Assembly: GCA_965116925.1 (NCBI GenBank)
Contig: OZ220744.1
Location: forward strand, 864,001 to 928,000
Direction: 5' to 3'
DNA length: 64,000 bases
From: Candidatus Poribacteria bacterium
Lineage (GTDB): Bacteria > Poribacteria > WGA-4E > PCPOR2b
Part shown: piece by piece, positions 24,139-26,376 of the stretch
How the letters are laid out: each line of letters opens with the position of its first letter
How positions within the stretch are numbered: position 1 is the stretch's first letter
Program-made: the position numbers and the translations under genes
The notes under the pieces: model-generated
The model's input: only the letters and a program-made list of their open reading frames with translations
The model's database searches: none
Told to the model about the DNA's origin: nothing

Positions 24139-25794
24139 TTATATCATATCAGAAAATTGCTCCAACTTAAATAGTGGTCCGCGACGCAAGATACCCAACA
24201 ATCGTACTGATGTATTGCCGATCGTTGGCTTATTGGTAGTTCCCGTCTCTCTAAAAACAATATACCCTTTTTGAAAATCGAGGGTCTTTATCCGCAACTT
24301 AAATCTTTCTGACGAAAACTGACTCAAATCGAGCATGTATACTTCATATTTGCGTCCTTGTTCTTGTATGTCAGACAGGCTTGCACGAACCAAATGAATA
24401 AGCCTCCCATCCATAAGTTCCTTGATTATACGATATTCCTCGGAATGGTCATCTCTGTCCCGAAAGTCAATCCGGAAAAAAGTACAATTTTTTTCCTTAC
24501 AAAATGTCAGAATCTGATCGAGACCTTTGATTCTATTTAACATGCCTTCGGTTGAAGCCCCGTCCTCCTCCAATTCCGAGATTTTGATCTCTGCTATCTG
24601 ATCAGCAGACTTTCCAACATCTTGGACACCAACAAGTCGAGCCTTTTCTCTTGTTCGTGCTTGATTTATTGCATTGGCACTTAAGGTGAGGTAGTCACGT
24701 GGCACAGCCCCAGACGCAAGGACGAGTCGATCGCGTGCTGTAGAGGATAAAATATTTGACAGAGATGAAATTCCAACATGTTTAGCGTAGCTTAAAAAGA
24801 CTTGCTCAAGGAAGGTTTTCGCTCGTGAGGGGGCTTCCAATGTTACATCCAAATCAATGGGATCGGCATCATGCCCGATTTGTAGACCAAGTGGTGGCTT
24901 TGCTTGAAACCAGTGTGTGAGATGTCTGATCCCTGCAACTTTGATCCACGCATCAGAATCGCGCACTGCACTGTGGACTAAATCCAAGAGTTTGGGCTGC
25001 TCTGCACTTGGTAAATAGTGAAGGTCGTCAAGGAAAATGTAAAATCGAGTTGCATTTGTATTAGTAAATCGGTGAATAATGTTTTGCATATCAGGTACTA
25101 GCCTGCTTACTTCATCGGTAGAGATTTTTTGCTTTGCCAACAGCTTATCAGTATCATCTCGCAATCTCGAAATTAAGGTTAGGAGGTGGGGTATCCTTTC
25201 TTTGTTTGAATAAAAAACTTGCATCTGTTCGCACACATTACGGCAAACCCACACAAATATTCTGTTGGTGGGTTGACTGCGGTGTGTTTGAATATTGATC
25301 CAAGAAGATAGGTAGCCTTGATTTTCAACACGTTTTTTTGCTTCAACCATCAAAGCTGTTTTTCCTGTACCTCGCCTGCCAAAAATAAGATGATGCCGAG
25401 ATGTGATAGCCGCCAGTATATTTTGGGCCGTATCAGGAACATAAGATAAACTTGGTTGAGTTTCGGAGGTTCGAGATCGAGCAGTTAACACGTCAATAAG
25501 TTCTATAGTTTTCGGATTCTGGACCCCATCCTTAAGACGCGTCATCGCGTCTTTTTCGCCTCGTTCAATCTTACGCACCACCACGAAACCATCAAATCCT
25601 TGTTGACCAAGTTCAGCGTCGAGAAAATTACCAAATTCCGCAGCCTTGTCGAAATCATCCTCAACGACATGCACAACGAATATGCTTTCTTCTGGATAAT
25701 CCCGTCTTTCGATTGACCGTATTTGAATCCCATCTTCAGAAAATCGGTTTTTAATGGAAGTCTCTAGGTCTATCGGAAGTTGTAGTTCTGTCAT
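24139..25794 (-). CDS. P-loop ATPase (ORC/CDC6-STAND-like) with small N-terminal alpha/beta domain
   Basis: Walker A IFGRRGTGKT, Walker B YIFLDD and ASGAVPRD (GxP-R) motif. The C-terminus looks wHTH-like. ATG 25794 overlaps the HEPN stop (ATGA). Confidence 0.8.
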   Translation of the reverse strand: MTELQLPIDLETSIKNRFSEDGIQIRSIERRDYPEESIFVVHVVEDDFDKAAEFGNFLDAELGQQGFDGFVVVRKIERGEKDAMTRLKDGVQNPKTIELIDVLTARSRTSETQPSLSYVPDTAQNILAAITSRHHLIFGRRGTGKTALMVEAKKRVENQGYLSSWINIQTHRSQPTNRIFVWVCRNVCEQMQVFYSNKERIPHLLTLISRLRDDTDKLLAKQKISTDEVSRLVPDMQNIIHRFTNTNATRFYIFLDDLHYLPSAEQPKLLDLVHSAVRDSDAWIKVAGIRHLTHWFQAKPPLGLQIGHDADPIDLDVTLEAPSRAKTFLEQVFLSYAKHVGISSLSNILSSTARDRLVLASGAVPRDYLTLSANAINQARTREKARLVGVQDVGKSADQIAEIKISELEEDGASTEGMLNRIKGLDQILTFCKEKNCTFFRIDFRDRDDHSEEYRIIKELMDGRLIHLVRASLSDIQEQGRKYEVYMLDLSQFSSERFKLRIKTLDFQKGYIVFRETGTTNKPTIGNTSVRLLGILRRGPLFKLEQFSDMI

Positions 25795-26312
25795 AGTATA
25801 CACCCCTTGTTTTGCAAGAAAGTACGAGTTGTAGACAGTAATAGGTCTGCGTTCTTTTTAAGATTAAGAGCATGGATTCTCCATGCTTTGTCTGATTTTG
25901 GATATGGTTCATAATCGGCACGATTCCTAAGTTCACGGGCATCTTTTAGTATATTCTGCCAATTGAGATCAGAGGAGAAGCGTAGTTTATATTTTGGGAG
26001 CTCACTGTGCTGCTCATAATCATCCCCCTGATGGCTTACAAACACACACGCTCGCATTGCGTGATACATTGAATAATAGTATCGGCTTACAGCACTTCGA
26101 TAGAGAGGAGGCTTAGAGTTTAGAAATTTATTAGCGTCATGTCGATGTTCATAGGCAAAATACCATCGATCTGCAGCAACTGTGCTTATCAACTCGGGTA
26201 TCGTTTGTCCAGAATCCTTCTGGAGAGATACGCCTTCTTTCCAATAATTTATCTGTGCATTGGTGGCCTCCACCAAGCGAATCAACCGCTTATCAGGAAG
26301 AATTTTTGGCAT
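25791..26312 (-). CDS. HEPN domain protein (UPF0332/COG1895-like)
   Basis: SAVSRYYYSMYHAMRA, H(SEL) and RELRNRADY (Rx4Y variant of the HEPN motif). Confidence 0.85.
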   Translation of the reverse strand: MPKILPDKRLIRLVEATNAQINYWKEGVSLQKDSGQTIPELISTVAADRWYFAYEHRHDANKFLNSKPPLYRSAVSRYYYSMYHAMRACVFVSHQGDDYEQHSELPKYKLRFSSDLNWQNILKDARELRNRADYEPYPKSDKAWRIHALNLKKNADLLLSTTRTFLQNKGCIL

Positions 26313-26341
26313 GAATCAACTCCGTCAGTCAAAGAGCAACT

Positions 26342-26376
26342 CATGCCAGTGGTAAAAAAAATCTACCACTGGCATG
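26342..26376. promoter_or_regulatory. Perfect 13-bp inverted repeat upstream of the HEPN gene (operator, terminator or RNA hairpin)
   Basis: CATGCCAGTGGTA-aaaaaaatc-TACCACTGGCATG, about 30 bp before the HEPN start. Confidence 0.6.

Follow-up and report, generated by a model that had tools for sequence, protein, structure and literature searches.

Organization of a HEPN-ATPase cassette in Poribacteria

This work describes a two-gene cassette in a 64,000-nucleotide stretch of a Candidatus Poribacteria genome (GenBank assembly GCA_965116925.1, contig OZ220744.1, positions 864,001 to 928,000; referred to here as the window). According to the open reading frame (ORF) list and a Pfam scan, the minus strand reads Amidohydro_2, HEPN, ATPase, and Rieske ferredoxin (Table 1). 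The HEPN stop codon overlaps the ATPase start codon in the tetranucleotide ATGA (an alternative GTG start at 25803 would give a 554-residue ATPase), and 18 nucleotides separate the ATPase stop codon from the start of the Rieske gene. A first-pass annotation, made from the sequence alone, had reported a 173-residue HEPN (SRYYYSMYHA, RNRADY) overlapping by ATGA an ATPase of ∼551 residues (GRRGTGKT, IFLDD, SGAVPRD), and all of these elements are present in the ORFs. The cassette is real, strictly conserved, and uncharacterized: the HEPN gene always stands directly before a gene whose product bears a small α/β domain, which is either free or fused to an ORC/CDC6-STAND ATPase. Comparative analysis suggests a tightly coupled mobile cassette that may act as an anti-virus switch built from a toxin-antitoxin (TA) pair.

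Table 1. Features of the cassette and its flanks, in window coordinates
Feature	Position	Strand	Remarks
HEPN gene	25791..26312	(-)	173 aa; class II/UPF0332-like (PF05168) core; Pfam E 7.5e-5
ATPase gene	24139..25794	(-)	551 aa from ATG; ORC/CDC6-STAND clade AAA+; PF24389 E 9.5e-13, PF13191 E 2.9e-9
N-terminal α/β partner domain, residues 10-76	25567..25767	(-)	conserved [YF]P-x-E turn; no GS/DxD motif
SRYYYSMYHA...GDD...H102 patch, candidate alternative active site	26007..26087	(-)	conservation in 112 homologues; putative role
RNRADY motif (R129, N130, D133, Y134)	25911..25928	(-)	Tyr in place of canonical RNase His
Walker A GRRGTGKT (139-146)	25357..25380	(-)	R140, R141, G142, G144, K145 invariant, n=134
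Variable helical insert, residues ∼173-249, between Walker A and B	25048..25278	(-)	three helices (model); low column conservation
Walker B IFLDD (253-257)	25024..25038	(-)	D256 invariant; D257 D92%/E8% (n=134)
SGAVPRD, lid domain	24694..24714	(-)	V364, P365, R366, D367 invariant, n=134
Winged-helix region, residues ∼418-497, then short β-rich tail	24304..24543	(-)	secondary structure; Cdc6/Orc1 and archaeal ATPase matches reach residues 493-500
15-bp inverted repeat	26342..26376	(-)	immediately upstream of HEPN start; region folds at -50.6 kcal/mol, z -3.9
Amidohydro_2 family gene, flanking host gene outside cassette	26448..27581	(-)	PF04909 E 2.7e-31
Rieske ferredoxin gene, flanking host gene outside cassette	23764..24120	(-)	PF00355 E 1e-15

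Pairing across genomes

A species-genome scan using ATPase patterns retrieved 73 loci, 66 of which belong to the main clade. The HEPN gene lies directly upstream in 64 of these 66, and the remaining two ATPases are at contig edges; four of the 64 pairs are frameshifted, interrupted, or partly deleted. The reverse search gave 156 metagenome HEPN loci; of the 80 best, 78 have the ATPase gene directly downstream, and the other two end at a contig edge. The pair counts were read by hand. Rows set aside are L068 (a contig-end ATPase fragment beside what is probably a transposase gene), L072 (upstream DNA too short), and the duplicates L276 to L278, L283, and L289. Co-conservation, on which the first-pass annotation had made its proposal depend, thus holds wherever the contig extends far enough. 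Among 106 full pairs, a 4-nucleotide overlap is present in 82 (with start codons chosen automatically), and pairwise identities of the HEPN and the ATPase correlate with a Spearman coefficient of 0.65, the pairs not being independent of each other.

The cassette family is rare yet wide in hosts. Close homologues occur in Candidatus Poribacteria, and further carriers belong to Verrucomicrobia, many Actinomycetota, Alpha-, Beta-, and Gammaproteobacteria, Planctomycetota, Acidobacteriota, and a Thermotogae metagenome-assembled genome (MAG), including culturable Streptomyces, Burkholderia, and Bradyrhizobium. In random phylum samples, with few candidates scored per genome, no close HEPN was found in 400 further Actinomycetota and a single one in 350 Planctomycetota, and the ATPase profile gave no match in 400 Pseudomonadota and one weak match in 300 Acidobacteriota. 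Annotated phages contributed one weak match and plasmids two. A second, weak planctomycetal match (L272) is an ordinary MNT-HEPN pair.

Three architectures in which the small domain tracks the HEPN

In the first architecture, the HEPN gene is followed by a free gene of 85 to 100 codons encoding the small domain, with no ATPase (intact in L223, L224, L226, L227, and L311 and broken in L294, from three genomes in all). The free and fused domains align in HHalign at 96.8% (E = 2.8e-10), and the dyad HEPNs align with the HEPN family of the window over their full length, including the N-terminal arm (99.8%). The second architecture, HEPN followed by a domain-ATPase fusion, comprises the main clade and a distant clade at 26% identity, the N-terminal domains of which match each other at 68.7% (E = 4.5e-5); in the distant clade, HEPN is upstream in four of four loci (a Paraburkholderia plasmid, two viral contigs, and one genome). 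In the third, the ATPase starts after the position of the domain, and HEPN is directly upstream in 0 of 12 distinct loci. Because the small domain is also encoded on its own behind HEPNs of this family and is present or absent together with HEPN, the comparison of free dyad, fused form, and solo ATPase singles it out as the probable HEPN partner. The same comparison provides new evidence that the cassette may have arisen when the partner domain of a HEPN became fused to an ORC/CDC6 ATPase that had stood alone.

Two further observations concern a single genome and a single contig. Genome G140 (L223, L226, L227, L310, and L311) carries four HEPN-standalone domain dyads, one after a Fic/Doc gene and another before a TIR-FGE gene, as well as one distant-clade fused cassette. 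On a viral contig (L282:5844-7688), two genes of unknown function and then a short HEPN-like gene come after a solo ATPase without the N-terminal domain; the four may form a distinct system.

The small domain is not an active MNT antitoxin

The additional α/β domain of ∼75 residues that had been noticed at the N terminus of the ATPase appears in the AlphaFold2 model as residues 10 to 75, in the order helix-strand-strand-helix-strand. This order is compatible with a Pol-β nucleotidyltransferase, and the free domain aligns collinearly with MNTs, its YP turn facing FGS. Comparison with 10 MNTs gave only 0.15% (fused) and 0.36% (free) in HHalign, values that are not significant. The motif GS-x8-12-[DE]x[DE] is present in 0 of 86 N-terminal domains and in 10 of 10 control MNTs from the source genome, which rules out an active MNT antitoxin. 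As such, the earlier description of a degenerate MNT-like antitoxin stands in part: the domain is probably the partner of HEPN, judging by its standalone gene and its distribution, the MNT catalytic motif is absent, and an MNT-like fold agrees with the order of helices and strands but is not supported by the HHalign comparison. A RimP-N/KH-like identity was also considered but not accepted (HHalign 6%; one of 86 members at Pfam E 0.02). Searches of the domain against Pfam, PDB sequences, and the ESM Atlas returned nothing usable, and the structure searches, which used full-length models, barely probed residues 1 to 90 of the ATPase.

A partner domain without catalytic residues would also be expected if it worked in the opposite direction, with a HEPN that is inert alone, an N-terminal domain that docks onto and activates it, and a triggered, oligomeric ATPase that clusters HEPN dimers into an active effector, in the manner of STAND proteins with fused effectors, giving defense without any antitoxin. 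The toxin-first gene order points the same way, being unusual for MNT-HEPN modules, whose customary order in the open text of PMC3710099 is the reverse, as does the description of Orc-Cdc6 clade STAND NTPases as switches that activate effectors in the accessible sections of a recent preprint (bioRxiv 10.64898/2026.10.19.760177). Dyads of HEPN and free small domain without an ATPase better fit a TA pair, and we consider the activator arrangement unlikely.

A class II HEPN with a conserved polar patch

The HEPN model (pLDDT 95) matches AF0298 (PDB entry 2hsb) with a Z score of 16.7 and a root mean square deviation of 2.2 over 122 residues (40 to 173), as well as other HEPN-family chains. An N-terminal extension of ∼37 residues, modeled as helices 7-15 and 18-34, precedes the matched core. 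In an alignment of 112 homologues, R129, N130, and Y134 of the RNRADY motif are invariant and D133 is 99% conserved. Conservation is equally high in the second patch (Y79, Y80, Y83, R87, G96, and D97, 100%; R77 and H102, 99%; D98, 98%; H84, 96%), and R49 and R72 are likewise invariant.

The canonical Rx4-6H RNase motif is absent, as is the RX4HXY motif of class I (type VII) HEPNs; RNxxDY stands instead, with Y134 in all 112 sequences. With a PF05168 fold, a conserved Tyr, and no RX4H, the protein is a HEPN of the class II (PF05168) type. According to the available text of PMC7641770, class II HEPNs have a conserved Tyr and lack RX4H, and no biochemistry had been reported for them up to 2020. 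Of the first-pass designation as a HEPN RNase, the fold is well supported (2hsb, Z 16.7), and the RNase activity, since the canonical motif is missing, can only be presumed.

The closest solved relatives are 2hsb, 9xbd, and 9xbc. The latter two are recent structures that carry RNRSDY and RNRSDF, respectively; a literature search did not find the associated paper. The pair suggests that the equivalent of Y134 has apparently been mutated by someone.

An ORC/CDC6-STAND ATPase with a variable insert

The 551-residue ATPase consists of the 75-residue N-terminal domain, a single P-loop AAA+ domain, a winged helix, and a 50-residue tail. Its model (pLDDT 90.5) matches Cdc6/Orc1 (2qby, Z 16.9, residues 91 to 493) and archaeal AAA+ ATPases, and Foldseek likewise retrieved ORC/Cdc6 chains. 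These matches, reaching residue ∼493, cover the winged-helix region and support the C-terminal winged helix-turn-helix that had been called probable. Because the Walker A, Walker B, and VPRD motifs are nearly invariant in 134 sequences, the ATPase is probably active. SGAVPRD is labeled here as a GxP or sensor-2-like motif, which is our assumption. The homologues P0255, P0259, and P0268 have an additional C-terminal tail of ∼70 residues, winged-helix-like by eye.

The helical insert between the Walker motifs is a candidate specificity region. In a strain that is otherwise ∼96% identical (runs X1 and X3, from one study), ATPase residues ∼171 to 207 are swapped for a diverged patch. Strongly diverged patches at 25174-25283 and 25473-25563, in the ATPase linker and helical insert (same runs), suggest patchwise recombination.

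Solo ATPases that lack both HEPN and the N-terminal domain persist, some of them on viral contigs, which raises the question of whether the ATPase itself might be the effector, acting as an oligomer that binds DNA and stops invader replication, with HEPN as a noncatalytic RNA- or nucleotide-binding accessory or backup. The missing Rx4-6H motif fits such a role, and the HEPN of the HINPO systems (see below) is proposed as a backup in the accessible sections of bioRxiv 10.64898/2026.10.19.760177. The tight cluster of invariant polar HEPN residues looks enzymatic, however, and HEPN is never missing from the fused clades where the contig permits a look; we regard an ATPase effector as very unlikely.

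Mobility and genomic neighborhoods

Several features of the poribacterial site suggest that the cassette is mobile. Its GC content is 42.2%, compared to 51.5% for the amidohydrolase gene, 49.0% for the Rieske gene, and 49.2% for the genome, and values this low occur in 0.6% of 2976 genome tiles of cassette size; the AT richness noted at the outset is thus real. Among 30 loci in the phylum that carry the orthologous amidohydrolase, 18 lead to the Rieske gene without a cassette, 11 carry it, and one is truncated, in agreement with the earlier impression that the cassette splits a commonly adjacent Amidohydro_2-Rieske pair. Within the phylum the distribution is patchy: 13 of 151 genomes have a close HEPN, 12 of them at this site. 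One empty site (L182:1234-1356) still has 41 codons of HEPN immediately ahead of the Rieske gene, which is evidence for cassette loss by deletion. The cassette also outpaces its flank in divergence: in one relative with 97% amidohydrolase identity, HEPN and ATPase identities are 73% and 78%. Unlike the amidohydrolase tree, the cassette trees place L008 and L015 among the genomes of another family (nine rows, no formal test).

Neighborhoods elsewhere were defined by crude script gene calls with at most three genes on each side; Pfam was run on 296 of 349 and PADLOC on a hand-picked 141, mostly without housekeeping matches. In a set of 50 named loci outside Poribacteria, 18 include a mobile-element marker within three called genes (integrase, resolvase, relaxase, transposase, FtsK/Rep, group II intron reverse transcriptase, or prophage repressor), and 12 have a PADLOC match (E ≤ 1e-15) within the same distance, comprising GajA, type I, II, and IV restriction-modification, DruE, AriAB, capP-like proteins, and four PDC candidates. 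One or the other is found at 24 loci, so that the mobile, defense-rich neighborhoods sought for the cassette apply to about half of them. These counts have no background control and are suggestive, not an enrichment statistic. The cassette lies beside prophage repressors in L048 and L275, and the distant-clade cassette on the Paraburkholderia plasmid adjoins SIR2 and ATPase genes.

Frequent residence on integrative and conjugative elements and prophages (18/50 loci) would also suit a selfish or stress-response TA module, serving element stabilization or dormancy, in which the ATPase is a regulator (an operator-binding repressor or a nucleotide-state sensor) with no anti-phage role. Its long stay at one site in Poribacteria, the at least seven ordinary MNT-HEPN pairs already present in the source genome, and an upstream inverted repeat that could be an operator are in keeping with this. 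A 551-residue STAND-type ATPase, in contrast, goes far beyond the needs of a TA module, and neither the known-defense neighbors at 12 of 50 loci nor the strain-level swap of a patch in the ATPase insert would be expected of one; a purely selfish or stress-response module is, in our judgment, quite unlikely.

The inverted repeat itself could be an operator, a terminator, or an attenuator. It has no match in Rfam, and a promoter scan gave signal at chance level. Similar arms occur in carriers L192 and L193, and a single arm occurs at some empty sites. Contigs from RNA runs show flat coverage of both genes and intergenic DNA, may derive from DNA, and were not counted as expression evidence. Farther along, between msrB and the Rieske gene, a palindromic multicopy repeat (23565-23740) with very high contig depth and many loose ends is missing from a related strain (joint at 23480-23734) and is probably a small mobile or REP-like element. 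Elsewhere in the window (15420-17897), an FGE-sulfatase-like gene is followed by a methyltransferase gene, an arrangement that we presume to resemble the egtB-egtD ergothioneine genes.

Proposed mechanism

We favor, with a probability of roughly 0.55, a cassette that is directed against invaders (phages or plasmids) and descends from a TA dyad; in it, the small domain would silence HEPN and the fused ATPase would couple this hold to invader sensing. The small domain would bind the HEPN dimer and, because it lacks the MNT catalytic residues, would act by contact rather than by AMPylation. The invader feature sensed by the ATPase may be DNA, contacted by the winged helix, or a protein, recognized by the variable helical insert. 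Sensing would lead to a change of nucleotide state or to ATPase oligomerization, by which HEPN would be released or rearranged. The freed HEPN could then attack RNA or block translation through a noncanonical site (H84/D97/D98/H102/R129/Y134), with translation arrest, dormancy, or abortive infection as the predicted outcome.

A more detailed scenario is tentative. Here, a dyad of free HEPN toxin and dead-MNT antitoxin and a solo ORC/CDC6-STAND ATPase would have become a fused, sensor-gated anti-phage switch that works by ATP-driven release of a class II HEPN with a noncanonical active site, involving neither AMPylation nor proteolysis. The free dyad, the solo ATPase, and the fusion would then be three stages that still exist today, with HINPO as a parallel or an expanded version.

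Several observations weigh against an anti-invader role or against its derivation from a TA dyad. In Poribacteria, the cassette occupies a single site in a metabolic operon (12 of 13 carriers) and no island, and neither a mobile nor a defense marker was found at 26 of the 50 loci elsewhere. The HEPN lacks Rx4-6H and belongs to a class without biochemistry as of 2020, so a nuclease or toxin role may be doubted. Its gene comes first, opposite to the usual MNT-HEPN order (PMC3710099, open text). The five intact dyads come from two genomes, four of them from one MAG with 5% contamination, and the clade comparison amounts to few evolutionary events, not 12 independent tests.

The cassette is a compact candidate two-gene defense system that is overlooked by standard profiles. 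It also offers a route to the open question of what class II (RxxxxY) HEPNs do without a catalytic His and how a noncatalytic partner controls them.

Comparison with known systems

No system in PADLOC 2.0 or NCBIfam is matched by both proteins. The PADLOC matches obtained are weak and unrelated: HEPN_IX (8.7e-7), mad8 (9.1e-5), AbiO (0.005), and PDC-M28C (0.027, for the ATPase). PDC-M28 profiles matched 0 of 112 HEPNs at E ≤ 0.1 and none of six fused and four free N-terminal domains; among 19 genomes related to one of Kitasatospora, none yielded the PDC-M28B locus, in a search whose controls likewise gave no signal. Scores for the DS-41 (NF053860) and Sll1717-family (NF047389) profiles are far below their cutoffs (25 versus 370 bits and 40.9 versus 75, respectively), and the part of PMC13092281 that was available names DS-41 once and describes no HEPN-ATPase pair of this kind. 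The open texts, without supplements, of PMC3710099, PMC11586414, PMC13092281, PMC12839542, PMC13000451, 10.64898/2026.01.04.697583, and 10.1101/2024.01.29.577857 do not describe the two-gene form or the free dyad, and searches of the open literature brought up no paper on the two-gene form.

The cassette shares with class II HEPN/MNT modules (PF05168 + PF01909; relatives of type VII TA systems) the conserved Tyr, the lack of Rx4H, and a small α/β partner encoded alongside, as far as the open portions of PMC7641770 and PMC3710099 describe them. It differs in the two-helix N-terminal arm of its HEPN and in a partner that is mostly fused to an AAA+ ATPase and lacks GSX10DXD, which makes AMPylation unlikely. 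In the MAE_18760 dyad, HEPN is also coupled to an NTPase, which the same portion of PMC3710099 proposes as the antitoxin of HEPN; that NTPase is an upstream ParA/Soj protein, whereas that of the cassette is a downstream AAA+ protein with a dedicated partner domain. With Avs and other STAND ATPases, the cassette has in common an NTPase of the STAND/ORC-CDC6 clade (match to Avs3, 8dgc, Z 12.9), but it has no long C-terminal repeat sensor, and its effector is a separate upstream gene rather than an N-terminal fusion.

The closest counterpart is HINPO, a system that is predicted only (bioRxiv 10.64898/2026.10.19.760177, an October 2026 preprint, cited from its accessible sections). HINPO consists of a HEPN gene of the PA-HEPN1 family, an inactive Pol-β nucleotidyltransferase (iNTase) fused to ParA (the ConB2 component), and an ORC-CDC6/STAND ATPase, the last two sometimes fused. 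The upstream HEPN gene and the ORC/CDC6-STAND ATPase (PF24389; 2qby, Z 16.9) are present in the cassette, and in HINPO, too, the gene after HEPN encodes a small N-terminal domain that evolves fast and is catalytically dead, at times within the same polypeptide as the ATPase. The first-pass annotation had not recognized a named system; in agreement with this, PADLOC matches none, yet the gene order, apart from ParA, is that of HINPO, and the architecture is thus not wholly undescribed. Unlike HINPO, the cassette has no ParA (ConB2) between HEPN and ATPase and comprises two genes instead of three; the overlap of the HEPN stop codon with the ATPase start codon leaves no room for an intervening gene. 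No ParA adjoins any of the main-clade pairs examined: no KGGxGK[ST] ORF occurs in loci L001 to L155, by a pattern that misses Arg variants. In addition, all 30 matches in a search for longer N-terminal domain fusions are ATPases of ∼550 residues, none with ParA, which is weak evidence. A ParA-less HINPO does not appear among the section headings on ParA-independent systems or in a term search of the preprint's accessible text. Compared by description, the cassette falls outside HINPO because ParA is missing, plausibly works alike, and appears best classified as a variation on HINPO that lacks ParA.

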